23,293 nt of DNA from Gemmatimonadales bacterium (GTDB taxonomy: Bacteria; Gemmatimonadota; Gemmatimonadetes; Gemmatimonadales; GWC2-71-9), in the NCBI GenBank assembly GCA_041615815.1, contig JBFJCP010000046.1:1-23293 (forward strand), in the 5' to 3' direction. The notes under the pieces are model-generated. The model had not been told where the DNA came from, did not search any database, and saw nothing but the letters and a program-made list of their open reading frames with translations. The position numbers were made by a program, and so were the translations under genes. This document shows, one piece after another, positions 2,548 to 17,492 of this stretch (position 1 is the stretch's first letter; each line of letters begins with the position of its first letter).

Positions 2548-2970
2548 GGGGTCGGACAGTCTGAAGGTCGGGACACGGTGGGAAGTCGACCGGCGGTAGT
2601 GACGGGGGCTCGCACCCCGCTGTCCGCCGCGTGTGGCTGCCCCGGGCTCCCACCTCCGACGGACCCTCTGACACTCGATCCTTCCCAGCCCTCCAATCGT
2701 CTGACCTTCCCACTTTTCCACCTCACCCACATTGTGTGGAAAGCCTCCGAATTCGCGTTTTGACAGATACTTATCTTCCACACCTCATCCAGAATATTAT
2801 CAGACACCCGAAGAAACACTCACCCCGGGCCTGAGTATGAGGTGATGGGGTCACGAGGGATCGGGGCTGCGGTGCTGGGTTGCTCCCGGCGTTCGGCGTG
2901 GTGAGCTTTCCAGTCGATCCGTCCGTGTTTCGGACGGGTCGATCTATCTGGGTCAATCGACGGAGGATCC

Positions 2971-4353
2971 ATGCAACGCCACATCCTGTGCGCCGGGCTC
3001 CTGGCCGCCGTGGGCCTCGCGGGGACGAGCGCCGCCGAGGCACAACGCGCCGACGGCGCAGGCTTCACCGTCCCGGTCGAGTATCACAAGCTCGACAACG
3101 GACTGAAGGTCGTGCTATCGCGCGATCCCACGGCACCCATCGTCACGGTGGCCGTGTACTACAACATCGGCTTCCGCATCGAGCCGCGCGGGCGCACCGG
3201 GTTCGCCCATCTCTTCGAACACATGATGTTCCAGGGATCCCGGAATCTCGGGAAGATGGAGTTCATTCGCCTCGTGCAGCAAAACGGCGGTGTGCTCAAC
3301 GGCTCCACTCGCTTCGACTTCACGAACTACTTCGAGATTCTTCCGGCACACAAGCTCGAGATGGCCCTGTGGGCCGAGGCGGACCGCATGCGCGGGTTGG
3401 CCATCGATCAGACCAACCTGACCAACCAGCAAGAGGTGGTGAAGAACGAGGTGAAGGTGAACGTGGTGAACCGGCCGTACGGCGGGTTCCCGTGGCTGGA
3501 TATGCCGCAATACGCCAACACCAACTGGAACAACGCGCACAACTTCTACGGTGACTTTCAGGATTTAGACGCGGCGACGCTCGAGGACGTGCGGTCGTTT
3601 TTCGATACCTACTACTCACCAAACAACGCGGCACTCGTGATCGTGGGCGACTTCGATCCGGCCAGCGCGCTTGCCATGGTGCAGAAGTACTTCGGTGATC
3701 TTCCCCCGGCGGAGCTGCCGGAGCGGCCCGACATCAGCGAGCCGCGGCAAGAGGAAGAAAAACGCTTCAACAAGCCGGATCCGTTGGCCAACAGGCCAGC
3801 GCTGGCCTTCGCCTACCACATGCCGGAACGGAATAGTCCCGAGTACTACGCGCTGGGCGTGCTGGACCAGATCCTCCTTCAGGGGAACGACAGCCGGCTC
3901 TACCAAGCGCTTGTGCAGCGCGCCGGGCTTACGGGCTCGGTGAACGGCGGCATCAACATGCTCGGGAACATGTTCAACTACGACGGCCCCATGCTCTGGA
4001 TGGCGTTCCTGTTCCACGACGCCGAGCACACGCCAGACGAGATCTTGGCGGTGGTGGATAGCGTGGTCGACGACGCCCGCACCAATCCGATGGACCGGGA
4101 GACGATCGACCGGGCGCTCGTCAAGATGCGATCGTCGCTCTACGAGTCCCTCGGTGGATTCTTTGGATTCGGGCGAGCGGACCTGCTGGCTTCGTTCGCC
4201 TTGTTTGACGACGATCCCGCTCGTATCAACCGTCTCGAGGCTGAATTCCGAAAGATCACCCCCGAGCTATTGCTCCGAACGGCTCAGGAATACTTGCGAC
4301 CAACCGCGCGGACCGTGCTCACCGTCGAGCCCGGTGCCACGGCCGGATCGTGA
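2971..4353 (+). CDS. M16 (insulinase/pitrilysin) zinc peptidase, catalytic subunit, 460 aa
   Basis: GGAGG ribosome-binding site, signal peptide, LDNGLKV, inverted zinc motif GFAHLFEHMMFQGS, NGST..D.TNY, and distal EVVKNE zinc ligand region. Confidence 0.93.
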   Translation: MQRHILCAGLLAAVGLAGTSAAEAQRADGAGFTVPVEYHKLDNGLKVVLSRDPTAPIVTVAVYYNIGFRIEPRGRTGFAHLFEHMMFQGSRNLGKMEFIRLVQQNGGVLNGSTRFDFTNYFEILPAHKLEMALWAEADRMRGLAIDQTNLTNQQEVVKNEVKVNVVNRPYGGFPWLDMPQYANTNWNNAHNFYGDFQDLDAATLEDVRSFFDTYYSPNNAALVIVGDFDPASALAMVQKYFGDLPPAELPERPDISEPRQEEEKRFNKPDPLANRPALAFAYHMPERNSPEYYALGVLDQILLQGNDSRLYQALVQRAGLTGSVNGGINMLGNMFNYDGPMLWMAFLFHDAEHTPDEILAVVDSVVDDARTNPMDRETIDRALVKMRSSLYESLGGFFGFGRADLLASFALFDDDPARINRLEAEFRKITPELLLRTAQEYLRPTARTVLTVEPGATAGS

Positions 4354-4367
4354 CGGAGGATAAGTCG

Positions 4368-5753
4368 ATGACGTGGAAAGCATTACTCGCGCTCGGCGCA
4401 TGCATGACCATGGTGCCCACCGTGGGCGTTGCGCAGCGGGAACAGCCGCCGGAGGGTGGGGAACCACGGGATTTTCGTCTTCCCGAGAAGGACACGTTCC
4501 AGTTGCCCAACGGCATGGGTGTGACGCTCGTGCCGTACGGCGCACTGCCCAAAGTGACGTCCACCCTCGTGGTCCGAGTAGGCAACGTGAACGAGACGGC
4601 GAATCAGGTGTGGTTGGCCGACGTCACCGGCGACCTCATGAAGGAGGGGACCACGAGCCGCAGCGCCGAAGACGTGGCCCGAGCCGCTGCCCGGATGGGT
4701 GGAGAACTAGGTATCGGCGTTGGTATGGATCAAACCACACTCAGTTTGGACGTGCTCTCCGAGTTCGGGCCAGACGCCGTGCGATTGCTGGCGGACGTGG
4801 TCAGGAACCCCCGCCTCCCGGGATCCGAGCTCGCCAGGATTCAGGCGGATCAGGTGCGGCGCGTCTCCATTGCCAAGACCCAGCCGCAACAGATTGCCCT
4901 CGAGCGGTTCCGGAAGGTGCTCTATCCCGATCACCCGTACGGTAGGGTCTTTCCCACCGAGGAGATGCTCCGGGGATACACCGTGGAGGATGTGCAGCGG
5001 TTTCACGCTGCCAACTTCGGTGCCCAACGCGCGCACCTCTATGTCGTGGGACGCTTCGATGCTGGCACGATGAAAGCGGCTATCCGACAGGCCTTTGGAG
5101 AATGGAAGAAGGGGAACCCGCCGAGCATCAATGTTCCGCACCCCTCATCGCGGCGGGCGGTCCATCTCATCGATCGCCCGGGGGCCGCGCAGTCCACCAT
5201 CTATCTTGGCCTGCCCGTCGTCGATCCCTCCAATGAGGACTTCGTCACCCTCTTCGTGATGAATTCACTCCTTGGCGGATCGTTCGCGTCTCGAATCACC
5301 AGCAATATTCGAGAGGACAAGGGCTATACCTACTCTCCCTTCAGCAGCATCTCGAACCGATTCCGGGACGCCTATTGGGTGCAGGTGGCGGATGTGACTA
5401 CGGATGTGACGGGGCCGGCGCTGCAGGAGATCTTCATGGAGATCGATCGCTTGCAGGCCGAACCGCCACCGGCCGCCGAACTGGAGGGAATCCAGAACTA
5501 CGTGGCCGGCACGTTCGTGTTGCAGAATTCCAGCCGGAACGGGATCATCGGTCAATTGTCGTTCTTGAATCTCCACGGGCTTCCCGACAGCTATCTCACC
5601 GGATTCGTCCAGAAGGTGCACGCTATTGCCCCCGTGGATGTCCAGCGGGTGGCGGCGCAATATCTCAGGGACGAAGACATGACGATCGTGGTGGCGGGCG
5701 ATCGAGAGAAGATCTCCGAACAAATCGCCGAGTTTGGCGAGATCATGAACTAG
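4368..5753 (+). CDS. M16 peptidase non-catalytic partner subunit, ~461 aa
   Basis: ATG 4368 follows GGAGGA. Signal peptide, LPNGM and M16-fold motifs but no HxxEH. It carries the C-terminal LLGGSFASRI...IREDKGYTY (R/Y substrate-binding pair) typical of M16B heterodimer partners. Confidence 0.9.
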   Translation: MTWKALLALGACMTMVPTVGVAQREQPPEGGEPRDFRLPEKDTFQLPNGMGVTLVPYGALPKVTSTLVVRVGNVNETANQVWLADVTGDLMKEGTTSRSAEDVARAAARMGGELGIGVGMDQTTLSLDVLSEFGPDAVRLLADVVRNPRLPGSELARIQADQVRRVSIAKTQPQQIALERFRKVLYPDHPYGRVFPTEEMLRGYTVEDVQRFHAANFGAQRAHLYVVGRFDAGTMKAAIRQAFGEWKKGNPPSINVPHPSSRRAVHLIDRPGAAQSTIYLGLPVVDPSNEDFVTLFVMNSLLGGSFASRITSNIREDKGYTYSPFSSISNRFRDAYWVQVADVTTDVTGPALQEIFMEIDRLQAEPPPAAELEGIQNYVAGTFVLQNSSRNGIIGQLSFLNLHGLPDSYLTGFVQKVHAIAPVDVQRVAAQYLRDEDMTIVVAGDREKISEQIAEFGEIMN

Positions 5754-5925: not shown

Positions 5926-6954
5926 TTACCCGGCCACGGTCCAGGTCCGGCCCCGCCGCAATACGCTATCCAGCGAGGCGTCTTTCACGCCTTCGGACGC
6001 CTGGCGGATCTGACCGAACACGACGTCTTCATAGGTGGGTGCGGGATCGTCCAACAGGACGCCCAGCACCATGGGGAATTCGGGGGGTTGGAGCGCGGCC
6101 AGCATGCTCGCCAGCGTGTGGTTCGTCTGGTCGTGCACGAGCAGATCTTGCTCGGCGGCGCCGCGCTCTCCGAGCGTCACGACCTCCATCTCCAACCGAC
6201 CGGGCTTGAGACGTAGTCCCTTGTCCCGCTCCTTGCCGAACACGAGCGGCTTGCCGTGTTCCACATACAGCTGTGTCTCGGGCGACGTCTTCTTCTCTGT
6301 GAAATCGCCAAAGACGTTGTCGTTGTACACAATGCAGTTCTGGAAGATCTCCACGAACGATGTGCCGCGGTGGGCGTGCGCCCGTCGCAAGATCTCGACC
6401 TCTTCCTTTTGATACGTGTCGATGGCCCGTGCGACGAAGCGAGCGCCGGCTCCGAGCGCGAAGGTGCAGGGAAGCACCGGGCGGTCCACCGATCCCAAGG
6501 GGGTGGACGGAGACCGCGTGCCGATGCGCGACGTGGGAGAGTACTGTCCCTTGGTCAGTCCGTAGATCTCGTTGTTGAACAAGATGATTTGGAGGTCCAC
6601 GTTGCGTCGCAGGACGTGCAGGAGGTGATTGCCGCCAATGCTGAGCCCGTCTCCGTCTCCGGTGATCACCCACACGTCGAGCGCGGGATTGGCCAGCTTG
6701 AGACCCGTGGCGATCGCCGGGGCCCGGCCATGAATCGTGTGGAAGCCGTAGGTGGACATGTAGTACGGAAACCGCGAAGAGCAACCGATCCCGGAGACGA
6801 AGACGGTGTTGTGTCGCGTGGCGCCCACATCCGCCAGCGTTTTCTGAACCGCTTTGAGAATCGCGTAATCTCCACATCCGGGACACCACCGCACTTCCTG
6901 GTCGGACGCGAAATCCTTGGCGCTCAGCTTGTCGGGGGGTGTGGCGATCGTCAT
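5926..6954 (-). CDS. korB: 2-oxoacid:ferredoxin oxidoreductase beta subunit (TPP-binding), 342 aa
   Basis: WCPGCGD, SGIGCSSR, HTIHGR, TPP motif GDGD...NN, YGLTKGQYSPT and Q.C motifs. ATGA overlap with the alpha subunit. Confidence 0.93.
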   Translation of the reverse strand: MTIATPPDKLSAKDFASDQEVRWCPGCGDYAILKAVQKTLADVGATRHNTVFVSGIGCSSRFPYYMSTYGFHTIHGRAPAIATGLKLANPALDVWVITGDGDGLSIGGNHLLHVLRRNVDLQIILFNNEIYGLTKGQYSPTSRIGTRSPSTPLGSVDRPVLPCTFALGAGARFVARAIDTYQKEEVEILRRAHAHRGTSFVEIFQNCIVYNDNVFGDFTEKKTSPETQLYVEHGKPLVFGKERDKGLRLKPGRLEMEVVTLGERGAAEQDLLVHDQTNHTLASMLAALQPPEFPMVLGVLLDDPAPTYEDVVFGQIRQASEGVKDASLDSVLRRGRTWTVAG

Positions 6955-8825
6955 GACGTACGCTCCAGCCGTGCGCGGATCGCCTCCAGGATCTCGACGA
7001 TCTTGAACGGCTTTCCCTGCACTTTGTTGAGTCCTTCCGCCGGTAGTAGAAACGTGCTTCGCAGAATGGTGACCAGCTGTCCGGCGTTCATCTCCGGCAC
7101 GAGCACTCGGTCGAAGTTGCCCAGCAGCTCACCGAGATTGCGGGGAAACGGATGGAGATATCGCAAATGAATGTGAGACACGTCGTACCCTTCGTCTCGT
7201 GCCCGCTTCACCGCGCGATTGACGGGCCCGTACGTGGATCCCCAACCCACGACCGCCATCGCGCCGCGCTCCTTGCCCACCGCCACCGATTGGAGCGGGA
7301 TGTCGTTGGCGATACCGTCCACCTTGGCGGCACGGACGTCCGTCATGCGCTGGTGGTTGGCCGGGTCGTAGGAGATGTGCCCGCTGTCGTAATCCTTCTC
7401 GATGCCGCCAATCCGATGCTCGAGGCCCGGAGTGCCCGGCGGTGTCCACGGGCGAGCGAGTGTCTCGTCGTTTCGAAGGAATGGATGGAACCCCTCGGGG
7501 TCGCCGCGGAACGCAACCGGAAACGTCGGCAGTTCCCGCTCTTCCGGAATCAACCACGGCTCCGCGGCGTTGGCGAGAAACCCGTCGGTGAGCAGATAAA
7601 CCGGTGTCATGTACTTCGTGGCGAGTCGTACCGCCTCCATGGCAGTCTCGAAGCAGTCCGCCGAGGTGGCGGCTGCGATCACTGGCACGGGCGTGTCCGC
7701 GTTGCGGCCGTAGACCGCCTGGTAGAGATCGGACTGTTCTGTCTTGGTGGGCAACCCCGTGGATGGACCGGCCCGCTGACTGTTCACGACGATCAGTGGA
7801 AGCTCCGTGCCCACTGCCAGACCGATGGCCTCGGTCTTGAGGGCGATGCCGGGGCCTGAGCTCGAGGTCACCCCCAATGCCCCACCATACGACGCCCCGA
7901 TCGCCGAACAGACTGCCGCGATCTCGTCTTCCGCTTGGAACGTGACGACGCCAAACGGCTTCAGGGCTGCCAGCACGTGGAGCAGTGGCGACGCCGGTGT
8001 GATGGGATACGAGCCGAAGACGAGACGCTCGAGACCGGCGGCTCGGACCCCGGCGAGCAGACCCCACGCCAGCGCTTCCGTCCCCGTCACCGTCCGGTAG
8101 ATCCCCGGTGGCACCTCCGCTGGGGCCACCGTGTAGCCGAGCACGCCGCTGGGCATCTCGGCGGTCTCGCCAAAGGCATGCCCGGCGTTGATGGCCGCGA
8201 TGTTCGCTTCCGCGATCTCGGGTTTCTTGGCAAACTTTCGCTTGAGCCATTCGATCGTGGCAGTCCGATCCCGATCGAACATCCAGAGCATGAGACCGAG
8301 CGTCCACATGTTCCTGGACCGGAGGGCCTCCTTCTGGCTCAACTCGAACTGCTTCACGGCCTCTAGCGTGTGCCTGGAGATGTCCAGCTTCAACACCTGA
8401 TACGGGGCCAACGAATCGTCCTCGATCGGGTTCGACTCGAATCCCGCCTTGCTCAGATTCCGATCGCTGAAGGAGCCGGTATCCAATACCACCAGTCCAC
8501 CGATGCGCAGATCCTCGAGGTTGACCTTGAGCGCCGCCGGGTTGAGCGCCACCAACACATCCAGATCATCCCCGGCCGTCATGATGTCCTGCGATCCGAA
8601 ATGAATCTGGAACGCCGAGACGCCGTAGGTCGTCCCGGCGGGTGCCCGAATCTCGGCGGGATAGTCCGGAAACGTCGCGAGGTCATTCCCGATGAGTGCA
8701 GTCTCGAGCGTGAATTGGGAGCCGGTGAGCTGCATGCCGTCCCCCGAATCGCCCGCGAACCGGATGACGACGGAATCGCGAAGCTCTCGATCCCCATGTG
8801 TGGATGGTGGCGAGGTGACTGTCAT
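6951..8825 (-). CDS. korA: 2-oxoacid:acceptor oxidoreductase alpha subunit (gamma-alpha fusion), ~624 aa
   Basis: IRFAGDSGDGMQLTG, PAEIRAPAGT, YPITP, QAEDEIAA, QRAGPSTGLPTK and PEMN motifs. Start reassigned to ATG 8825 (MTVTSP). Substrate specificity cannot be read with certainty. Confidence 0.92.
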   Translation of the reverse strand: MTVTSPPSTHGDRELRDSVVIRFAGDSGDGMQLTGSQFTLETALIGNDLATFPDYPAEIRAPAGTTYGVSAFQIHFGSQDIMTAGDDLDVLVALNPAALKVNLEDLRIGGLVVLDTGSFSDRNLSKAGFESNPIEDDSLAPYQVLKLDISRHTLEAVKQFELSQKEALRSRNMWTLGLMLWMFDRDRTATIEWLKRKFAKKPEIAEANIAAINAGHAFGETAEMPSGVLGYTVAPAEVPPGIYRTVTGTEALAWGLLAGVRAAGLERLVFGSYPITPASPLLHVLAALKPFGVVTFQAEDEIAAVCSAIGASYGGALGVTSSSGPGIALKTEAIGLAVGTELPLIVVNSQRAGPSTGLPTKTEQSDLYQAVYGRNADTPVPVIAAATSADCFETAMEAVRLATKYMTPVYLLTDGFLANAAEPWLIPEERELPTFPVAFRGDPEGFHPFLRNDETLARPWTPPGTPGLEHRIGGIEKDYDSGHISYDPANHQRMTDVRAAKVDGIANDIPLQSVAVGKERGAMAVVGWGSTYGPVNRAVKRARDEGYDVSHIHLRYLHPFPRNLGELLGNFDRVLVPEMNAGQLVTILRSTFLLPAEGLNKVQGKPFKIVEILEAIRARLERTS

Positions 8826-8973
8826 GGCGTGCCCTGGTGTCTCATGCCGGCTGGTGGCGGTCTCCGCTGGCTCCTCACATGCGAAAAGTAGCGAAAACCC
8901 TGCGCGCACCGCTACCGGAGCACGTTGATGGGTGAGCGGAGGGCCCCAACGTCACACACGTCCATGCGGGACA

Positions 8974-9208
8974 TGTGGAAAAGACCCCACACCTATTGCC
9001 ATGCATTCTGCGAATGACAACGGCGCGCCACGACAAGTCGTGCACACGCCGCCGCCTATGATGCCACCGTTCCTCACAGCAAAGAATTCCAACAAACCAC
9101 ATTCGTGTGGAGCACGGTGCGGGGAACTTCTCCACAAATCCACACGTCGTGGAAAGACGGCGGAAAGCCACTTCCCGCGGGTGGTTACCGTCCACACGCT
9201 CACCCACA
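8974..9208. promoter_or_regulatory. Cluster of DnaA-box-like 9-mers
   Basis: Eight CCACA/TGTGG cores in 235 bp, including TTTTCCACA on the - strand (8974-8982, full match to TTWTNCACA), TTCTCCACA (9128-9136), AAATCCACA (9136-9144) and TGCTCCACA on the - strand (9106-9114). Confidence 0.5.
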
Positions 9209-9240
9209 CAGGATCCGCTAACCCAAAGAAAATTCGGCGC

Positions 9241-9268
9241 TTGTGCCCTCATTGGTCAGGTCTATATT
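9241..9268 (+). promoter_or_regulatory. sigma70-like promoter for the candidate ncRNA
   Basis: TTGTGC (9241-9246), 16-nt spacer, TATATT (9263-9268). The predicted start at ~9274-9276 coincides with the first helix of the structured region. Confidence 0.55.
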
Positions 9269-9273
9269 GCCCG

Positions 9274-9700
9274 CGCGTTACGCAGGGGAAGGGGAGAGAC
9301 GAGCTGTCTCGACCACGCCTTGTGTGGCGGACTCGGGCGAGAACTTCCGGGGAGGCCGCCGACGAACCGAGGGCTCAGGCGTCCGGCGATCCGGGTGACC
9401 ACATCGACTCGAGTCGACGAGGCCAGTCGCGTGCCTCGTCCACGCCGGTCTAGCGCCCCGGCGTGCAGTGCGGAAGGTCGGTCCGCGACTCGATCTGATC
9501 CGTAGCGCGGTGGGCTGGTGAACCGATCGGCTGGCCAGCTGATTCGGGGATGGAGGACGGAGCTCCTGGGAGCCACACGGCGAGCGCCACAGTTTGCCGA
9601 GGCCTTGGGAAGAAGAACAGGCGGAGCAATCCCCTGACTCCGGCTAACCAGTCTGCGGGGCGGTCTGCCACCTTCGGGTGTGCAGGCCGCCTCTTTTTTT
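9274..9700 (+). ncRNA. Candidate large structured ncRNA of unknown family (~380 nt plus terminator)
   Basis: Bounded by a promoter and an intrinsic terminator, both flanking genes are on the - strand, there is no credible ORF, and more than ten mutually compatible helices were found by eye (see findings). Confidence 0.65.
9657..9700 (+). terminator. Rho-independent terminator
   Basis: GGGGCGGTCTGC-CACC-TTCG-GGTG-T-GCAGGCCGCCTC followed by T7 (9694-9700): 16-bp stem with a C(UUCG)G tetraloop and a U-tract on the + strand only. Confidence 0.88.
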
Positions 9701-9763
9701 GGGGAGGTCAGAAGCGCCTCCCGCCCTTTCTTCTCCCTCTCAGCTCTGCCTCTGCCCTCTCAG

Positions 9764-11713
9764 TTAGTTCACCTCCACATACGTCATCGGATTCGCCGGA
9801 TAGTTCCGCTGGGGTAGGGACCGATACCGAAATCGGCCGCCTTCCAGGTTCGCGACCATCACGGTCATGCGAAGTCCCGTGGGACGGTCGACGGCCAGGG
9901 AGAGTTCCAACTGGTACCCCTCCGAGGTCGAACGACTCCGGTACTCGAGCCCGTTCGCCAGCGCTTGGAGCGGCTGGGAGAGTGGGCGGTCCAAACTCGT
10001 CAGCACGAACTCGGTGAAGCGGAGGTTCCGGCGTGCGGCCACGTTCTTGGCCATGAATCCGTGGTAATCGAGACTCCATACGGTTGCCTGGGCACCGGGT
10101 GGTGGCGTGAGCACGATGACCGGATCCTCGTAACCGATGTGTGTCCGACCCGTGGGGTCGTAATCGAGGATGACAGCCACATGATCACCCTCGCCCGCTT
10201 CGGCACCAGGACGAGCCCGCACGTCGGCATCCCGGACCCGAAGCCCGAGAACCAGACGATTCCCCTGGCGTGCGATGGCGCCCAGCGCTACGGCGTCGGG
10301 ACCTGCGGTTCCATGAAACCGCCGCCACGCTGGTCCATCCCACTCATCGAGGACGCCGTCCACGGTGATGGGCCTCGCCGGAGTGATAGCCTCTACCCGG
10401 TCCAGGTCGGCGCGATAGACGAGTTGCGCTCCCTGCGACTCGTACCTCTCGTCATTCCTGAGACGCGTGAGCTGTTGGCGAGTCCCCGCGACGATGGCAC
10501 TGAGCTCCGCGACCAAGGATCGAACGGTGTCCCGAGTGTCGAACGGCGGACCACTGAGCATTTCGAGTGCGCGCTCCAGTGCCTCGATTGCAGCTTCGAC
10601 CGCCCGTTCATCGATGGGAGTCCCGGGTGCGAACAACGGCTCGAAGAGATGTGCATCCCATCCGTAGCTTCTATAGACATCGAAGAACGGAGCGAGATGC
10701 TCGGTCACGTCCCGACCGAACAGATCGAGCGCAGCGTCACGAATGGCAGCACGGGGCTCGTAGGTGTCGGGGTTACGCCCGTACGCCGCCACGGTGGCCA
10801 CCGGGAGCATGGACGCCCAGGGTTGGTTCATGGGGTTGGAGACGATCCCGACGGCCGCACTCGCGAGGTCGGCGCTCCGTCCGCGCACGGGGCCGAGAAA
10901 CACGCGCCATCGGGCGTAGTCGTTGACCGGGAAATTGTCCCAGATGAGCGGTGGGCGGCCCATGATCTCACCCCAGGTCCGCGCGGCCTCGGCGGTAATC
11001 TCGCTGGACGCCACATCGGGGCCGGTCCAGAAGAAAGGAATACTGGATGGGACGAGCTGCCCGAGCCGCCGAAGATATTCCCGGTCCCCCCAGGCGTTAG
11101 TGTAGGTGGTGGGGGTCACGACCAGCTCGGTGTCCTGGTCCTCGAGAAACGTGTGCAGGGCGTTGATCAGGTCCGCGTGGGCATCTGCCAGCGTGGAGAA
11201 TCTCGCCGCGTCCGCCGCATGGACCAGCGTTTGCGGGACGTCGTCCAGCATTAGCGCCACGTGCCGAATACCGAGGCCAAGGACCGTGGAGATCTTGTCT
11301 TCCAGGGCCGCCCGGTCCGCCGCGTCCGAGTACACCATGCTCAGTCCTGGGCTGATCGAAAAGTAGAAATCGATGTTTTCCGCCCGGGCGACCGCCGACA
11401 GCTCCTCCAAGCGCTCGAGGTCGGCAGCGGGATAGGCCTCACGCCACCGGTCGCGGTGGTAGGGATCGTTCTTGGGCGCGTAGTAGTAGACGTTCATCCC
11501 GACGCGCCCCATGAACCGGAGCATGGCAATCCGCTCCGCATGGGACCACGGCTGGCCGTAGAAGCCCTCGATCACGCCGACTTGGTGAAACGGCACGGCG
11601 GGGCCAACCGGACGTGCGCCCACGTCGGCCGGTGGCCCGTGCGGACTCAGGATCCAAATCACGGCAGCGACCATGACCGCCGCGACGCTCATCACGATCG
11701 GGACCGGACGCAT
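9764..11713 (-). CDS. GH84 beta-N-acetylglucosaminidase (O-GlcNAcase/hyaluronidase family) with N-terminal membrane anchor/signal and C-terminal CBM9/DOMON-like domain, ~649 aa
   Basis: GVIEGFYGQPW, YYYAPKNDPYHR..WRE.YP, SISPG, catalytic Asp-Asp in ALMLDDV, FFWTGP, IWDNFPVNDY and NPMNQ. The C-terminal domain begins PITVDGVLDEW. The start ATG (11713) overlaps the ligD stop (TGATG). Confidence 0.9.
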   Translation of the reverse strand: MRPVPIVMSVAAVMVAAVIWILSPHGPPADVGARPVGPAVPFHQVGVIEGFYGQPWSHAERIAMLRFMGRVGMNVYYYAPKNDPYHRDRWREAYPAADLERLEELSAVARAENIDFYFSISPGLSMVYSDAADRAALEDKISTVLGLGIRHVALMLDDVPQTLVHAADAARFSTLADAHADLINALHTFLEDQDTELVVTPTTYTNAWGDREYLRRLGQLVPSSIPFFWTGPDVASSEITAEAARTWGEIMGRPPLIWDNFPVNDYARWRVFLGPVRGRSADLASAAVGIVSNPMNQPWASMLPVATVAAYGRNPDTYEPRAAIRDAALDLFGRDVTEHLAPFFDVYRSYGWDAHLFEPLFAPGTPIDERAVEAAIEALERALEMLSGPPFDTRDTVRSLVAELSAIVAGTRQQLTRLRNDERYESQGAQLVYRADLDRVEAITPARPITVDGVLDEWDGPAWRRFHGTAGPDAVALGAIARQGNRLVLGLRVRDADVRARPGAEAGEGDHVAVILDYDPTGRTHIGYEDPVIVLTPPPGAQATVWSLDYHGFMAKNVAARRNLRFTEFVLTSLDRPLSQPLQALANGLEYRSRSTSEGYQLELSLAVDRPTGLRMTVMVANLEGGRFRYRSLPQRNYPANPMTYVEVN

Positions 11714-14259
11714 CAGTCCTTCCCTTTGGTTTGCCCGGCATCGAGGCGCTCGTGGAGCCGCTGGAGGGCTCCGACGAGATCGGGACTGAGGTCGATGACC
11801 TGCGCCATGGGATCCTCGCCCAGTCGGCGCATGCGCTCGGGGACGCTCCGAATCGTATGATGACCGATACGCAGCGTCTCGCTTACCTCGCTCCACTCGA
11901 GCGGCGCGGACACTGGTGCGCCGGGAAGCGGACGTACGCAGAAGGGTGACACGAGTAACCGACCGTGTCCGTTTTGGACATAGTCCACGTACACCTTGCC
12001 CTCTCGCCTGGACGGTTGTCTCGTGATGGTGGCGATGGTGGGCAGCTCATCCGAGATCACCCGTGCCAATAGACCGCCCAGAGAACGCGACTGCTCGTAC
12101 GTGCACTGTTTGCCAAGGGGTACAAGGACGTGCAATCCGGTGGATCCGCTCGTCTTGATGAAAGCGGGAAGCTCGATGTCGTCGCAGAGCCTGCGGATCG
12201 CGTTGGCCACCTGGATTACATGCTCGAACGGTGCGTCCTTGGGATCCAGATCGAGGATGCACCAGTCCGGATGTTCGAGGTCCGTCACACGGCTGGACCA
12301 GACGTGCAGCGGGATGGCTGCGAGATTGATGATGTAGAGCAGGGATTCGACGTCGTCGCACACGAAATATCGGAGTTCACGCTCCGATCCCTCACTCCAG
12401 AGTGTCTCGGTCCGGATCCAGTCTGGCGCAAAGACCGGGGCGTCCTTTTGAAAGAACGATTTCCCGTCGATCCCATCGGGGAATCGCGTGAGGACAAGCG
12501 GTCGATCCCGCAGGTAGTGCAGCATCCAGTTCCCGATATCGCGGTAGTACGCAATCAGATCGCCTTTGGTGTAGCCCTGCTCCGGCCAGAAGACTTTGTC
12601 CAGATTCGAGAAGACGACCTTGCGTTCGGGTTCGGTGTTCTCGAGTTCCGGTTGCACCGGCTCGGGTAGCTCCTCGTCCGTCGTCTCCCGCGTGCACTCA
12701 TGCGGCCGCTTGTCGTCGCGCATCCGCATGAAAACCGGGTGCCGGAGCAGCCCAATCTCCGTCAGCTCCTTGAATCGCACCTCGCACACGAGCTCGGGCT
12801 CCACCCATCGGTGTCCGGCGCCGGTGGGCACCGTGCCGGTGCACGGCGGCGTCTCCCGCGCCAGTGCGTCCAGCTCGACCGCAATCTCATCGATTTGCTC
12901 TCCGCTGAACCCGGTGCCAACGCGGCCGGTGTACACGAGCTCGCCATCCACATACTGCCCAACGTGGAGCGCGCCGAACCCGGAACGGGCGCCTTTGGGC
13001 TCGGTGTACCCCACCACCACGAAGTCGTCCGTACGATCCACGCGGATCTTGAGCCACAGGGCTGACCGCCCGCCCCGGTATGGCGCGTCGGCCTTCTTCG
13101 CCACCAGCCCCTCGAGCCCGAGTTTTTCGACCTCGGCGTACATCGCTTCCCCCTGCTCGGGGATGTGCTCCGAATACCGAAGGGGGCCCGCCGTGGGCAG
13201 GATGTCGCGCAGCAGGCTCTTGCGAGTCTCCAAGGGAAGAGGCCGGAGATCGTACTCCTCGAATGCGAGGAGGTCGAAGACGTACAGCGTGGCCGGAAGC
13301 TCCACGGCAGCCCGGGCAATGTCCGGACGGCGTTGCAGCTTGGCGCGCTTCTGAAGCCGATGAAAGCTGGGCAGCCCGCGGTCGTCATGTACCACGACCT
13401 CGCCGTCCAGGACCACATGGGAGAACGGCAGGCGGCCGACCACCTTGGCCACCTCGGGGAAGACTTCGGTGAGATCGTGTCCGGCGCGGGAGCGGAGCAA
13501 GGCTCCGTCATCCTCCCGTGCGGCGAGCAGGCGATAGCCGTCGTACTTGAGCTCGAACACCCAGTCCGGCTTCGAGAACACCTCGTCGCGAGGTTCGGCG
13601 AGCATGATCTCGATGGCCCGGGCATCCACGGGCTCGTTTGACGGCGCGTTCAGTTCGCGCAGGCGCTTGCGAACGGCCACGGCCGGGTCGGCGCCCTCCT
13701 TGAGCTCCTCCACGGTGCGGCCCGAAAAGATCGAGTCTTCCGGATAGGCATATGCCGCGTCGCGCGCGTAGGCGTCCCGCTCCTTGATCAGGAGCCATTC
13801 CTTGGGATCCCGCTTCGTTCGAACGAGCGTCCATCGACCGCGGAGCTTGTAGCCCTTGAGATCGAACAGGAGCTTGCCGTTCTCGAAGGACTCCGCCGGA
13901 TCTTCGTACGGTACCCAAACTCCCTGATCCCAAACGATCACTGCGCCCGCGCCATAGTTTCCCTCCGGGATCATTCCCTCGAAGTCCGCATATTCGAGGG
14001 GATGCGGCTCGACCGAGACAGCGAGTCGCTTCTCGTTGGGATCGGCGGCGGGGCCCCGCGGCACCGCCCAAGAGTGGAGCACGCCGCCCCACTCCAATCG
14101 GAGGTCGAAATGTGTCCGACGAGCGGCGTGTTTCTGCACCACAAAAATGTCACCGCCCGGTGTCGCTCCGGTTCCAAACGGCTCGGGAGTTCGGTCCGGC
14201 GATCGCTTGGCCCGATAGGCGCTCAGGCGGTCGGTGTCGGTGGGTTTTCTTGCGGGCAT
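11713..14259 (-). CDS. ligD: NHEJ DNA ligase D (3'-phosphoesterase - ATP-dependent ligase - polymerase), 848 aa
   Basis: Phosphoesterase: FVVQKHAARRTHFDLRLE, SWAVPRGP. Ligase: ELKYDGYR, LDGEVV, FDLL, EGLVAKK, WLKIR. Polymerase: RFPDG...FFQKD, DLDP, KTSGSTGLHV, DYVQN. Confidence 0.97.
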   Translation of the reverse strand: MPARKPTDTDRLSAYRAKRSPDRTPEPFGTGATPGGDIFVVQKHAARRTHFDLRLEWGGVLHSWAVPRGPAADPNEKRLAVSVEPHPLEYADFEGMIPEGNYGAGAVIVWDQGVWVPYEDPAESFENGKLLFDLKGYKLRGRWTLVRTKRDPKEWLLIKERDAYARDAAYAYPEDSIFSGRTVEELKEGADPAVAVRKRLRELNAPSNEPVDARAIEIMLAEPRDEVFSKPDWVFELKYDGYRLLAAREDDGALLRSRAGHDLTEVFPEVAKVVGRLPFSHVVLDGEVVVHDDRGLPSFHRLQKRAKLQRRPDIARAAVELPATLYVFDLLAFEEYDLRPLPLETRKSLLRDILPTAGPLRYSEHIPEQGEAMYAEVEKLGLEGLVAKKADAPYRGGRSALWLKIRVDRTDDFVVVGYTEPKGARSGFGALHVGQYVDGELVYTGRVGTGFSGEQIDEIAVELDALARETPPCTGTVPTGAGHRWVEPELVCEVRFKELTEIGLLRHPVFMRMRDDKRPHECTRETTDEELPEPVQPELENTEPERKVVFSNLDKVFWPEQGYTKGDLIAYYRDIGNWMLHYLRDRPLVLTRFPDGIDGKSFFQKDAPVFAPDWIRTETLWSEGSERELRYFVCDDVESLLYIINLAAIPLHVWSSRVTDLEHPDWCILDLDPKDAPFEHVIQVANAIRRLCDDIELPAFIKTSGSTGLHVLVPLGKQCTYEQSRSLGGLLARVISDELPTIATITRQPSRREGKVYVDYVQNGHGRLLVSPFCVRPLPGAPVSAPLEWSEVSETLRIGHHTIRSVPERMRRLGEDPMAQVIDLSPDLVGALQRLHERLDAGQTKGKD

Positions 14260-14285
14260 GTTCTCGTCGATATTAAGATAGCGCT

Positions 14286-15146
14286 ATGCCAGCGCGTCCC
14301 ATTGGATCGGCCACTCTCTCGTTTGGCCTCGTCTCCATCCCCATCAAGCTGTATGCGGCCGGGGAACCGTCCAGGCGGATTTCGTTCAATCTACTCCACA
14401 ACAAGTGTGGGTCCCGCCTCAAGCAGCAATACATCTGTCCCGAGGACAACGAAAAGGTCGAACGCAGCGATATGGTGAAGGGGTACGAATTCGCCAAGAA
14501 CCAGTACGTGACCTTCACCCCCGAGGAGCTCAAGGCGCTGGAGGAGAAAGCGACGGAGCGGATCGACATCGACGAGTTCGTCCCCGCGGAGACGGTACCG
14601 CGGAACTACGTGGACCGAACCTATTACCTCGGACCGGACAAGGGTGGCGACCGGGCCTATCGGCTGTTGTCCAAGGCGTTGCGGGACGCCGGGCGCGCTG
14701 CCATCGCCCGGTATGCGGCTCGCGGCAAACAATACCTCGTGATGGTCCGACCCATGGACGACGGTTTGGTCATGGAGCAGCTCCTCTACGCGGATGAGGT
14801 GAAGCCGTTCGCCGAAGTGCCGCTGGGGGAGGGCGACATCAAAGAGGAAGAGCTCAAACTGGCCCAGCAACTCATCGACCAGGCCGCCTCCGACGAGTTC
14901 CATCCAGAGAATTACAAAGACGACGTGCGGGAGCGCATTCTGGATCAGATCCAGCGGAAGGTCGAGGGCGAAGAGATCACCACGGCGCCCACCGAAGCAC
15001 CGCAGACGCAGGTGATCGATCTGATGGAAGCGCTCAAGGCGAGTCTCGCCGGCGGAGGGCCCGAGGGCGAGGAACGAAAACCCGCCAAACGTGCGGAAAC
15101 GAAGTCCGCCTCCAAGCGAAAGGCACGAAAAGCGTCGAGCGGCTAG
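14286..15146 (+). CDS. ku: NHEJ DNA end-binding protein Ku, 286 aa
   Basis: LSFGLVSIPIKLY, VKGYE, IDIDEFV, YYLGPD, AYRLL, F.PE.YKD, VIDLMEALKASL and a Lys/Arg-rich C-terminal tail. Divergent from ligD. Confidence 0.97.
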   Translation: MPARPIGSATLSFGLVSIPIKLYAAGEPSRRISFNLLHNKCGSRLKQQYICPEDNEKVERSDMVKGYEFAKNQYVTFTPEELKALEEKATERIDIDEFVPAETVPRNYVDRTYYLGPDKGGDRAYRLLSKALRDAGRAAIARYAARGKQYLVMVRPMDDGLVMEQLLYADEVKPFAEVPLGEGDIKEEELKLAQQLIDQAASDEFHPENYKDDVRERILDQIQRKVEGEEITTAPTEAPQTQVIDLMEALKASLAGGGPEGEERKPAKRAETKSASKRKARKASSG

Positions 15147-15174
15147 GCAGTACCCGCGCGCGGCGCCCCTCCCC

Positions 15175-16005
15175 ATGACCGACTACAGTACCCGCGACGT
15201 GGCAGACCTGATGGATCTGTCGGTACATCAGGTTCGCTCCTACGTGCGCGCGGGACTGCTCGCGCCGGAGCGTGACGGCTCGGGTGCGCTGCGCTTTTCC
15301 TTCCAGGACATCGCGTTCCTTCGCACCGCCAAAGCGCTGATGGCGGCGAGCATCCCACCCCGTCGAGTGCGCAAAGCGCTTCGCCAGTTGCGGGCGCAGC
15401 TTCCCGATGGGGTGCCCCTGTCCGCCGTGTCGATCGACATCGATGGTGGCCGGATCGTCGCGCGCGACGAGGCCACGGTCTGGCATCCCGAATCGGGCCA
15501 GATGCTGTTCAACTTCTCGGGCCTGCCACCAGACGTGGAACCCATGGAAGAGCGGCGGGCGGAGCGTCTGCGCAAGGCGTGGGCAAAGATGGACGCCGAG
15601 CACTGGTTCGAAGTCGCCGCCGAGCTGGAGGGGGTGAACCAGACGGAAGCCCTCGAGGCCTACGGGCGCACGATCGAGCTCGATCCCACGCACGCCGATG
15701 CCCACGTCAATCTCGGTCGGCTGCTGCACGACCAGGGGCGAGTCCGCGAGGCGGCGCAGCATTATCGTGACGCGCTGGAAGCGCGGCCGGAGCATCCCAT
15801 CGCGGCATTCAATTTTGGCCTTGCCCTGGAAGACCTGGGCCGACCAGCGGAGGCCGTGGTCGCCTACCGACAGGCGCTCGCGAGCCAGCCGGAATACGCA
15901 GATGCGCATTTCAACCTGGCACGGGTGTACGAGCGTCTCGGGCAACCCGCCGCGGCGCTTCGTCACATGAGCACGTACAAACGCCTCGTGGACGACAACG
16001 TTTAG
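15175..16005 (+). CDS. MerR-type helix-turn-helix protein with C-terminal TPR repeats, ~276 aa
   Basis: Start reassigned to ATG 15175. N-terminus YSTRDVADLMDLSVHQVRSYVRAGLLAP...LRFSFQDIAFLR is a MerR HTH pattern. The C-terminus has ~4 TPRs (AHVNLGRLL, AAFNFGLALEDLG, AHFNLARVYERLG). Confidence 0.87.
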   Translation: MTDYSTRDVADLMDLSVHQVRSYVRAGLLAPERDGSGALRFSFQDIAFLRTAKALMAASIPPRRVRKALRQLRAQLPDGVPLSAVSIDIDGGRIVARDEATVWHPESGQMLFNFSGLPPDVEPMEERRAERLRKAWAKMDAEHWFEVAAELEGVNQTEALEAYGRTIELDPTHADAHVNLGRLLHDQGRVREAAQHYRDALEARPEHPIAAFNFGLALEDLGRPAEAVVAYRQALASQPEYADAHFNLARVYERLGQPAAALRHMSTYKRLVDDNV

Positions 16006-16020
16006 CCGCGGCGTCTCCCC

Positions 16021-17133
16021 ATGACGGCGCCACCCACGGATGGACGATTCCGCGTCACCTACCGCCTGACCTGCCCCCCCGACGAGAACCCGACGGACAA
16101 AGCGCTCGCTCTGGTGCACGAGCAGACCGTCGAGCTTCCCTCCTCATGCCTCCCCGCTCACGTTGCCAAGGAGATTGTGGGCCGCGTCGAGCGCGTGGAG
16201 CCGGTGGACGAGCTAAGATGGCTCGCGACCGTGTCGTACACCAATGCCACGGTAGGGACGGGACTCCTTCAGTTCGTGAACCTCCTGTTCGGCAACATCT
16301 CGATGCAACGCGGGATCCTGCTCGTAGATCTCGAGATTCCTCCCGAAATCCTTCGGCAAGTGGGAGGACCACGCTTCGGGATCCACGGGTTGCGCACGCT
16401 CTGCGGCGTCGATCAGCGGCCGCTCGTGTGCACCGCTGCCAAGCCGTTGGGACTCACGGCGGTGGAGCTCGCACGAGTCTGTGGTGCCTTCGCGTTGGGG
16501 GGGATCGACGTCGTGAAAGACGATCACGGGCTCGCCAACCAACCGGCTGCGCCGTTTCTGGAGCGTGTGCAGCGATGTCAGGACGCCGTGGAGGAGGCCA
16601 ACGCCAAGACCGGTGGCCGGACACTCTATTTTCCCAACCTGTCGCGCGGCGGAAGCGCATTGGCGGAGGATCTCGAGGGGGCACGATCCGCAGGGTGCCG
16701 CGGGGTGCTCCTCAGTCCGCTGGTCATGGGGTTCGAAACGGTGACTGACGTGGCCGCTCGAGCCGACATGGCTGTCCTTGGTCATCCGGCGTTGGCTGGC
16801 GCGTTCTTCCACGCAGATCACGGGATCACCCCGGACGTCCTGCTAGGACTGCTTTTTCGTCTGTTGGGGTGTGACGGAGTGATCTACCCCAACGTCGGTG
16901 GACGGTTCGCCCTCACGCAGACCGATTGTGACGCGATCAATCACCGCCTACGCACCCCGGGTCTCGGGATGCGGCCGGCCTTTCCCGTTCCAGCGGGTGG
17001 CATTGACGTGGCCCGTATGCCGCACTGGGTCGAGCGATACGGAAGGGACACCATGTTTCTGATTGGTGGAAGTCTGTATCGGCAGAATGACCTCACGGCC
17101 GCCGCGCAGCGGCTCGTGGCGGCGTTGAGCTAG
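16021..17133 (+). CDS. RuBisCO-like protein (form IV), 370 aa
   Basis: EQTVE, LFGNISM, GPRFGI.GLR, KPLG, KDDHGL (His in place of the RuBisCO KDDE Glu), YFPN, HPA, PAGG and LIGG. The short length is typical of RLPs. Confidence 0.92.
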   Translation: MTAPPTDGRFRVTYRLTCPPDENPTDKALALVHEQTVELPSSCLPAHVAKEIVGRVERVEPVDELRWLATVSYTNATVGTGLLQFVNLLFGNISMQRGILLVDLEIPPEILRQVGGPRFGIHGLRTLCGVDQRPLVCTAAKPLGLTAVELARVCGAFALGGIDVVKDDHGLANQPAAPFLERVQRCQDAVEEANAKTGGRTLYFPNLSRGGSALAEDLEGARSAGCRGVLLSPLVMGFETVTDVAARADMAVLGHPALAGAFFHADHGITPDVLLGLLFRLLGCDGVIYPNVGGRFALTQTDCDAINHRLRTPGLGMRPAFPVPAGGIDVARMPHWVERYGRDTMFLIGGSLYRQNDLTAAAQRLVAALS

Positions 17134-17334
17134 CCTCCGAATACCGCGACCGAACTTCCAGAGACCCCTTGCGTTCCGGTGTACCTGTTGCGCCAGCGCT
17201 ACTGTGGCGTTAGAACCACATTCCGGTTGTCTCCCCCGGGTTAGGTCGGCCACGCTCGACCGGTCGCCGGTCTGCAAGTTGGCCTCAGGCATCGACTCCT
17301 GGGGCGGACACCGGTGCGTGAATGCCGCAGCCCC

Positions 17335-17349
17335 TGGCACAGGGATTGC
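17335..17349 (+). promoter_or_regulatory. sigma54 (RpoN) -24/-12 promoter
   Basis: cTGGCAC-AGGGA-TTGC matches TGGCAC-N5-TTGC with exact GG-N10-GC spacing. Intergenic, ~90-140 bp upstream of the candidate starts of the large surface-protein gene. Confidence 0.72.
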
Positions 17350-17492
17350 CCCTCCGGCTAGCATTGCCGCGCGCGCGCGCCGGTAGCGTTGACCGGTCGC
17401 GACCTCAACCACGAACTGGATCGAACCTAGCGATTTCTTTTTTGGCTCGAACGCGCCCCCTTCTCGAGCGATTCCGCTCCCCCTCGCCTTCC

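Follow-up and report, generated by a model that had tools for sequence, protein, structure and literature searches.

The window, by which we mean the whole 23,293-nucleotide stretch of Gemmatimonadales DNA analyzed here, carries at positions 9274–9700 (+ strand) a free-standing non-coding RNA gene of ~427 nt, which is almost certainly functional and very probably represents a new, undescribed class of large structured RNA. Comparison across homologues shows a predicted architecture in which a kissing loop and a pseudoknot lock three hairpins into a compact core; the 5′, P4 and domain-2 modules are optional, and the gene has a promoter and terminator of its own. Our preferred reading, which we hold tentatively and at somewhat less than an even chance, is that this large structured RNA belongs to the core genes of two Gemmatimonadales families and is abundant, and that it would act in trans as a homo-oligomeric scaffold, perhaps together with a protein encoded beside it. 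The categorical novelty is that of the RNA class and the neighbor protein; the proposed assembly principle is already known from OLE and GOLLD.

The gene runs from the predicted start to a T-run, its ends being deduced from promoter and terminator, and its length in the family has a median of 427 nt (range 413–437, n = 81), or ~385 nt without the terminator. All 20 of the sequence strings quoted in the original prediction that were checked lie where it had placed them. The promoter (9241–9268) is in place as claimed, with a −35 box TTGTGC at 9241–9246, a 16-nt spacer and a −10 box TATATT at 9263–9268; a TTGY...TAnnnT pair, which is a loose pattern, occurs within the last 50 nt upstream of the start in 83 of 86 full-length copies, while a sigma-70 scan found no promoter and left this one unscored. 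The intrinsic terminator (9657–9700) consists, again as claimed, of a UUCG-capped hairpin (9657–9693) followed by seven T residues (9694–9700), and its stem covaries at pairs 9666–9684 and 9667–9683. Both neighboring genes are indeed on the − strand: korA, encoding a 2-oxoacid:acceptor oxidoreductase alpha subunit (6951–8909; TIGR03710, 617 bits; start codon not fixed), is divergent and adjoins the window copy only, the same context recurring just at loci L002 and L003, and a beta-N-acetylglucosaminidase-domain gene (9764–11896, PF07555) is convergent. The purine-rich junctions of the RNA would suit a riboswitch or other cis-regulatory leader, or an antisense RNA acting on a neighboring gene, but such a role is very improbable in view of the constitutive terminator at the end of the transcript, the variable and often oppositely oriented downstream genes, the inverted orientation relative to the neighbor in family f3 and the lack of any riboswitch model match. 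Further along the window, positions 11713–17133 group LigD and Ku (an NHEJ pair), a MerR-TPR protein and a RuBisCO-like protein, and at positions 17322–23291 a surface protein with Ig-like, filamin and invasin-domain-3 repeats is encoded by a very long ORF that extends past the contig end.

Folding of the + strand of the window copy gives a z-score of −3.11, equaled by none of 100 shuffles, compared to −1.00 for the − strand, and the + strand is the more stable in 26 of 28 homologues; 62 of the 427 positions are at least 97% conserved. A small protein-coding gene is ruled out, since indels among homologues do not keep frame (775, 110 and 51 have lengths of 1, 2 and 0 modulo 3, and are thus mostly not multiples of three), variability shows no codon periodicity (0.27/0.24/0.24 by position modulo 3), and the + strand of the window copy contains no ATG ORF. 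Rfam 15 yields no match to the window at gathering score and only chance-level matches over 8900–9800 at E ≤ 10, and across 14 homologue loci the best Rfam match is a sub-threshold one between the terminator region and an unrelated sRNA. Taken with the strong covariation among homologues and the cover by RNA-library contigs described below, these results bear out the original prediction that the + strand encodes a large structured ncRNA, free-standing and not described before: neither a significant Rfam hit, nor a lack of covariation, nor folding at the level of shuffled sequence, nor a coding ORF, each of which it had listed as counting against the RNA or its novelty, was found. RNase P RNA, tmRNA and SRP RNA, which share the size range and the near-universal presence in the clade, had been set aside on recognition, and the true genes do lie elsewhere in the source genome (G000:C8:105464–105828; C1, by ARAGORN; and C3:132708–132805, respectively). 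Full-text literature searches, with passages of PMC13514080 among the material, turned up no account of the RNA, and we consider it very likely to be absent from print, with the proviso that a non-Rfam motif table may contain an entry.

Homologue collection and covariation analysis, proposed with the original prediction, give 11 column pairs (93 sequences) that exceed every value of a null of 12 tree-based alignments, all 11 within model helices, as are 22 of the 24 column pairs at E ≤ 1. Over the 84 model pairs, 91.0% of cells are paired (43 sequences) vs 37–41% in slid controls, a count in which model helices 10 and 11 reach just 23% and 47% through misregistration caused by indels in P9 of the window copy; over the 37 pairs of the core, the value is 98.1% (65 sequences) vs 29–48%. 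The covariation sets leave out locus L011 and one near-duplicate, alignment A1 leaves out four incomplete copies (L019, L030, L045 and L047), and alignments A3 and A4 comprise 65 of 101 cores and 45 of 59 domain-2 segments.

P5, P6 and P7 make up the universal core of ~93 nt. The loop of the P5 hairpin (9416–9440) presents bases 9426–9431 (GUCGCG), which form kissing loop PK1 with 9484–9489 (CGCGAC) in the loop of P7; PK1 is 98.2% paired in 65 sequences and changes from G-C to A-U in 14, and is otherwise mostly invariant, with one to two independent changes on the tree of full copies and a covariation E-value of 0.67. The P6 hairpin (9441–9465) contributes loop bases 9453–9456 as the 5′ strand of pseudoknot PK2, whose 3′ strand is 9505–9508. 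This predicted pseudoknot is well supported: it is 100% paired, its pair 9454–9507 is C-G in 66 sequences and U-A in 27 and lies above all null values, and the double changes on the tree are compensatory in four of four cases. P7 (9469–9508), which carries the PK1 loop and the PK2 3′ strand, comprises P7a (9469–9473/9500–9504) and P7b (9476–9481/9490–9495) and is 95–100% paired. Upstream of the core, the 5′ hairpin P1/P2 (9277–9328) is variable in sequence and was taken from the MFE fold, with a median z of −2.5 over 88 copies; its inner P2 columns are 86–96% paired and its outer P1 columns align poorly. P3 (9331–9337/9408–9414) encloses the optional P4 arm (module 9331–9414), composed of P4a (9347–9351/9390–9394) and P4b (9354–9360/9378–9384), where pairs 9348–9393 and 9356–9382 covary above all null values and the P3/P4 columns are 73–100% paired. 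Domain 2 (9512–9654), also optional, spans P8–P13 and contains invariant unpaired purines, with GAAC, GGAUGGAAG and AGAAGAAC conserved and unpaired; its P13 hairpin (9618–9636) covaries at 9619–9635 and has a GNRA-type loop, GN(N)RA as a loose pattern in 88 of 94 copies, and P11 may resemble an IC3 GNRA receptor. We also observed that two base pairs of different helices, 9348/9393 and 9444/9462, covary mutually (E 0.4–0.9), through either common ancestry or a tertiary contact.

The fold first drawn from the window copy agrees with this model in part. Helices 9296–9310, 9417–9439, 9441–9465, 9512–9519/9647–9654, 9558–9562/9638–9642 and 9618–9636 are supported across homologues, whereas for helix 9523–9547 the support covers the outer and inner parts, and helix 9578–9585/9592–9599 is complementary in the window copy with a middle unsupported across homologues. 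Five helices of the proposed domain 1 are not conserved, and forcing the domain-1 helices costs 17 kcal mol–1 (−167.0 vs −184.1 when free). Among the five, the closing helix 9274–9282/9501–9509 is complementary in the window copy and 15–84% paired per column across homologues, the four-way-junction helix 9409–9416/9486–9493 is complementary there and 22–87% paired in seven of its eight columns, and hairpins 9313–9327, 9382–9395 and 9470–9486, though complementary in the window copy, find no support across homologues. Both pseudoknots were missing from that fold.

The RNA is modular, in that some lineages lack its 5′ part, some its P4 arm and some its domain 2, while the core is kept in every shortened variant seen, in degenerate form in L032 and L200. 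The P4 arm is missing in L045, L113, L229 and L270; 56 of the 73 family genomes have domain 2, and genera g53, g17 and g8 lack it throughout. Short paralogues (L019, L098, L099 and L125) are without P1–P4, show PK1 in its A-U form and an L9 that is not palindromic, and carry a box-rich promoter of their own, TTGCGC...TATGTT. Separately, L448:580–780 (G268:C9) is a free-standing element resembling the 3′ half of domain 2, with a terminator and without the core, which suggests that modules of the RNA are able to stand alone.

With the core covariance model under stricter filters, all but one of the 73 f1 genomes (72/73) and both f3 genomes, the two families being Gemmatimonadales, have the RNA, compared to none of 73 genomes of nine other families of the phylum (74 genomes when f4–f12 and f2 are counted as listed). 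BLASTN finds it in 38 of 61 related genomes, the source genome included. A profile search locates three copies in the source genome, namely the window copy, the main copy at C8:53693–54190 and a divergent copy on C2, and over 75 genomes the copy number is one in 56, each at a single conserved locus, two in 16 and three in 3. Among the 119 loci listed from a pattern scan of GTDB, at least 51 are true members, all with Gemmatimonad- titles, and none of the other 68 exceeds 5.3 bits. Model R1, run without a positive control, has no match in five f2 genomes at E ≤ 1, in five genomes reached via pattern loci or in 41 genomes of the phylum of G286, and the surroundings of the YhaM-like gene in two f2 genomes contain no related RNA. 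None of 13 pattern matches in viral contigs scores as true; a metagenome scan gave one true match in 120 and is uninformative on range because the allowed gap was too narrow. A domain-2 match in family f7 (G216, E = 2e-4) is due to chance, as it runs antisense within a long conserved ORF. We note that unpublished genomes enter some tallies, G016 those of BLASTN and 6S, G200 those of family distribution, copy number and domain 2, and G153 that of raiA in actinobacteria, and that locus L011 of G016 entered the copy-finding profile and the raiA-comparison profile; no claim depends solely on them.

The window copy itself is a genus-level duplicate, 71% identical to the main copy on C8 and 82% identical to the korA-adjacent copies in the remaining two genomes of that genus. 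It retains promoter, boxes, core, domain 2 and terminator, but has no 206-aa candidate partner gene (see below) alongside, and two of its self-complementary sites are imperfect palindromes, so that it may assemble less well or differently.

What leads us to a homo-oligomer is a set of three self-complementary sites. S1 (9342–9346) is a tetramer, AAUU in 42 copies, AUAU in 13, AGCU in 10, UCGG in 4 and ACGU in 2, plus others, with AACUU as the imperfect form in the window copy; its central adjacent bases are Watson–Crick complementary in 78 of 88 copies vs 30 by shuffling. S2 (9395–9402) is an octamer occurring as alternative palindromes (GUGAUCAC, GUAGCUAC, GUGGCCAC and AUGAUCAU), with centers GAUC, AGCU, GGCC and GGUC scattered across the tree; it is fully self-complementary over eight bases in 46 of 94 copies and a short ordinary hairpin in most others, and in the window copy it reads GUGACCAC, with a broken center (GACC). 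S3 is the L9 loop UGGCCA (9532–9537), whose palindromic GGCC is found in 70 of 82 full copies (GACG in 9, GGGC in 2, GAUC in 1) and 2 of 13 short copies, and which cannot covary because it is nearly invariant. Intramolecular pairing of L9 with the P4b loop was considered and rejected, the GACG clade showing no compensation. When compensatory branch changes were scored for 1146 column pairs 1–3 nt apart, the S2 center ranked first with 5.2, a signal (9398/9399) of which about half comes from copies with a spacer between these columns, and the S1 center second with 5.0, S1 having been chosen by eye and hand-anchored ahead of its test. Neighboring bases cannot pair within one chain, and the compensation at S1 and S2 is thus read as intermolecular contact. 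Covariation of this kind marks intermolecular pairs according to passages of PMC12286853, where the cryo-EM dimer bridge of OLE switches from GGCC to GAUC or AGCU in symmetric kissing loops, much as S1 and S2 do here. The sequence signature of a homo-oligomer, covarying adjacent loop bases with self-complementarity kept, is therefore present at both sites, and palindrome switching like that at OLE and GOLLD contacts leads us to predict one: copies of the RNA would meet at S1, S2 and S3, and it is reasonably likely that they self-assemble, as OLE and GOLLD do, into symmetric dimers or larger oligomers held by as many as three palindromic contacts.

The likeness to OLE, itself a large ornate bacterial RNA, and to ROOL, GOLLD and ARRPOF is limited to this proposed assembly principle, to judge from the portions consulted of PMC12286853, PMC12990946 and bioRxiv 10.64898/2026.07.01.735769. 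Those RNAs span 255–800 nt, vs ~385 nt here without the terminator, and come from a different phylum; their four Rfam models have no match in the window or the 14 homologue loci. OLE has dedicated protein partners (PMC12286853, in part), and the neighbor protein here differs in having neither a family nor a clear fold match.

The RNA could alternatively be a compact monomer like raiA, possibly catalytic or ligand-binding, in which case the palindromes would be tight hairpin loops or contacts of a symmetric protein and the neighbor gene merely syntenic. We regard this as fairly unlikely. It draws on the two pseudoknots around a small core and the optional arms, which parallel raiA (PMC10861870 and PMC12968392, in part), on raiA being a monomer (PMC12286853, in part), on the unpaired purines of domain 2 and on the joint disappearance of S1 and S2 with the P4 arm in variants; yet a single chain cannot explain the adjacent-base compensation at S1, a catalytic site in domain 2 is hard to reconcile with whole genera that are without that domain, and no substrate-like variable segment was seen. 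The correspondence with raiA (RF03072) goes further, as both RNAs are free-standing and abundant and have a GCCAGUCGC hairpin loop engaged in a long-range pairing of 6–7 bp with CCAC soon after, but similarity of plan is not proof of descent. In raiA, whose junction and pseudoknots are covered in sections of PMC10861870, PMC11751092 and PMC12968392, the PK1 partner is a junction strand and P1 joins the 5′ and 3′ ends, whereas here PK1 is a loop–loop interaction with the P7 loop and the 5′ end is a local hairpin; comFC and raiA genes are not among the annotated neighbors. Homology to raiA, suspected from shared motifs, fails the covariance-model, profile and topology tests: RF03072, which detects the motif in 39 of 101 actinobacterial genomes, has no match in the source genome at E ≤ 10, 95 family members reach at best 1.6 bits against a profile built on 30 raiA loci (shuffles 2.6), the reverse profile at best 1.0 bits (shuffles 4.0), and model R1 finds no match on the motif in the 30 raiA loci.

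Of the functions suggested at the outset, a protein scaffold fits best and a ribozyme stays among the candidates, while the branched, pseudoknotted fold suits a 6S/Ms1-like polymerase binder poorly. The idea that the RNA binds RNA polymerase in place of an undetected 6S RNA is improbable. It shares with 6S and Ms1 a free-standing, apparently abundant character in a lineage where 6S (RF00013) is detected in none of 61 relatives or the source genome; 6S RNA, however, is a long rod with a central bubble, and the 6S and Ms1 models have no match over this RNA at E ≤ 10. Moreover, 6S is equally undetected in f2 (0/12), which lacks this RNA, so presence and absence show no complementary pattern, and replacement of 6S was rejected on that ground.

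A candidate partner is encoded beside the main copy by a gene for a 206-aa protein (G000:C8:54297–54914; single-copy there). Of 79 loci with sufficient flank, 64 have the gene next to the RNA, and the gene has nearly the same range, 73 of 74 f1 genomes, 2 of 2 f3 genomes and no other family; in the phylum sample, the 75 genomes with the RNA coincide with the 75 with the gene, and an RNA copy lies <2.5 kb from the gene in 74 of 75. It led to a neighboring RNA in all eight genomes missed by BLASTN, with the gene lacking an adjacent RNA at a ninth locus (G003), and adjacency persists through an inversion in f3 and through an inserted gene. One genome (G020) has kept the RNA and lost the gene. Two others (G024 and G058) have neither, and are not independent co-losses because the adjoining YhaM-like gene is also missing by the query used. 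Loss of the P4 arm together with the gene was considered as well, and holds for G020 only, L045, L113 and L229 keeping the gene without the arm. As RNA and gene mark one clade, their co-occurrence amounts to a single gain, and adjacency may simply be inherited, given that synteny in this block (YhaM-like, LemA, M48) is old. A further point against a partnership is the overall acidity of the protein (median charge −6), which has one basic stretch at residues 121–170. It has no Pfam family, its first member no NCBIfam match, and the family search gave no usable Atlas match; no PDB sequence match is convincing (best E 0.0036, a designed protein), and 137 representative matches look like fragments or the same family, except two long repetitive proteins. 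A structure model (pLDDT 84.8) gave no clear fold match: the best Foldseek E is 0.018, and the best VIA alignment has Z 5.6 and rmsd 2.9 over 77 aligned positions, most of them within residues 46–141. We propose, with less assurance than for the oligomer itself, that the oligomer would scaffold a ribonucleoprotein with this protein, which is quite possible though short of probable.

Other genes recur around the locus. RtcB and archease lie directly downstream of the main copy, convergent, in six and four loci, respectively; loci with RtcB, archease or the YhaM-like gene include L311 (G000:C8:46000–62000), L008, L013, L031, L033, L034 and L036. The YhaM-like OB-HD gene is near the RNA in both families, although RNA-processing neighbors are not universal. 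In ~30 loci (L009, L081, L317:7129–7794 and others), the space separating the RNA from the 206-aa gene, or the stretch immediately upstream, holds a second gene without a Pfam family, whose product is predicted, on visual judgment, to be secreted and helical.

PMC10861870 argues that bacteria have only a few RNA classes that are both large and highly conserved, and that those with a known function are mostly catalysts or cores of essential particles. PMC12286853 leaves open whether multimers are common among large natural RNAs. The present RNA, near-universal in its clade, modular, apparently abundant and without an Rfam family, offers a direct and cheap test of that question through base-level predictions at S1–S3, natural variants that lack each of the modules and a named candidate protein. 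If only the assembly principle holds true, it would be a variant of OLE/GOLLD-type assembly.

The RNA also seems to be abundant in RNA from soil and sediment. Contigs of family members from four RNA runs (three studies) reach summed depths of ~2.4e5, 8.5e3, 30 and 790 over the core (9353–9514), compared to at most 11, 56, 3 and 160 for korA in the same runs; these depths are unstranded and summed across many organisms, with a conserved RNA recruiting more relatives than a gene, and are therefore evidence of the family in RNA libraries rather than of level or strand. Contigs with one difference from the window copy (9463–9656 and 9421–9598, two runs) are confined to the RNA, and no contig covers 8867–9190 or 9677–10000 in these runs. 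One X2 contig joins 9598 to 9352 across six shared letters, which is most likely a chimera.

Upstream of the promoter, a conserved element, TAAcCCRAAgaAA....GGCrCTTG in the consensus of 78 upstream regions, runs into the −35 box (9219–9243, + strand), and CCACA/TGTGG sites, which we read as DnaA-box-like, cluster at 8974–9208 between the divergent korA and RNA promoters. There are eight such sites per 250 bp at the window copy and six at the C8 copy vs a genome mean of 0.46, and these two promoters are the densest clusters of the genome; strict DnaA boxes are few, with 23 of 78 promoters containing none within one mismatch. The sites would couple RNA synthesis to replication or growth state, a connection that we consider conceivable but doubtful. 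Equally doubtful is the complete picture of a multivalent oligomer or cage with three palindromic contacts, a double-pseudoknot core, a particle with a protein of undescribed fold, DnaA-box control and a housekeeping role in two families.

The dense box cluster, the one to three copies at unrelated loci and a main copy lying 40–376 kb from dnaA in six of six genomes examined could also point to a non-autonomous mobile element or a DNA-level site, such as a DnaA titration locus, with the transcript as a by-product. This is the least probable of the readings we considered, and is highly improbable: most genomes (56/75) carry the gene once, at the same conserved locus, the G-U pairs and the covariation of the pseudoknots belong to the RNA level, viral contigs gave no true match, and an origin-like region lies away from the RNA, between dnaA and dnaN. 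The RNA locus was likewise rejected as oriC, the GC-skew minimum of C8 falling at 108.7 kb; the same check in G273 is only partly informative because the skew turns near dnaA (~880 kb) and reverses past 940 kb. The origin-like dnaA–dnaN gap (G000:C8:102165–102400) has four CCACA/TGTGG sites, TGTGGA/TCCACA sites among its features, and an AT-rich tract, with the skew minimum close by, and the region upstream of dnaA contains CCCAAAGAAA, part of the RNA promoter element.

The upstream module is found at two further places. A third full copy (G000:C16:46067–46236, E = 3.6e-10) is followed by a short ORF and not by the RNA, with a divergent membrane-protein gene opposite, and a weaker match in the window (2727–2818, + strand; CCACA/TGTGG sites and CCGAAGAAA, E = 2.6e-4) stands before an M16 peptidase pair (2971–5753). 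Finally, a long ORF with two tandem DnaA-ATPase-like domains occurs at G000:C14:76065–80657 and in four relatives, besides the true dnaA.
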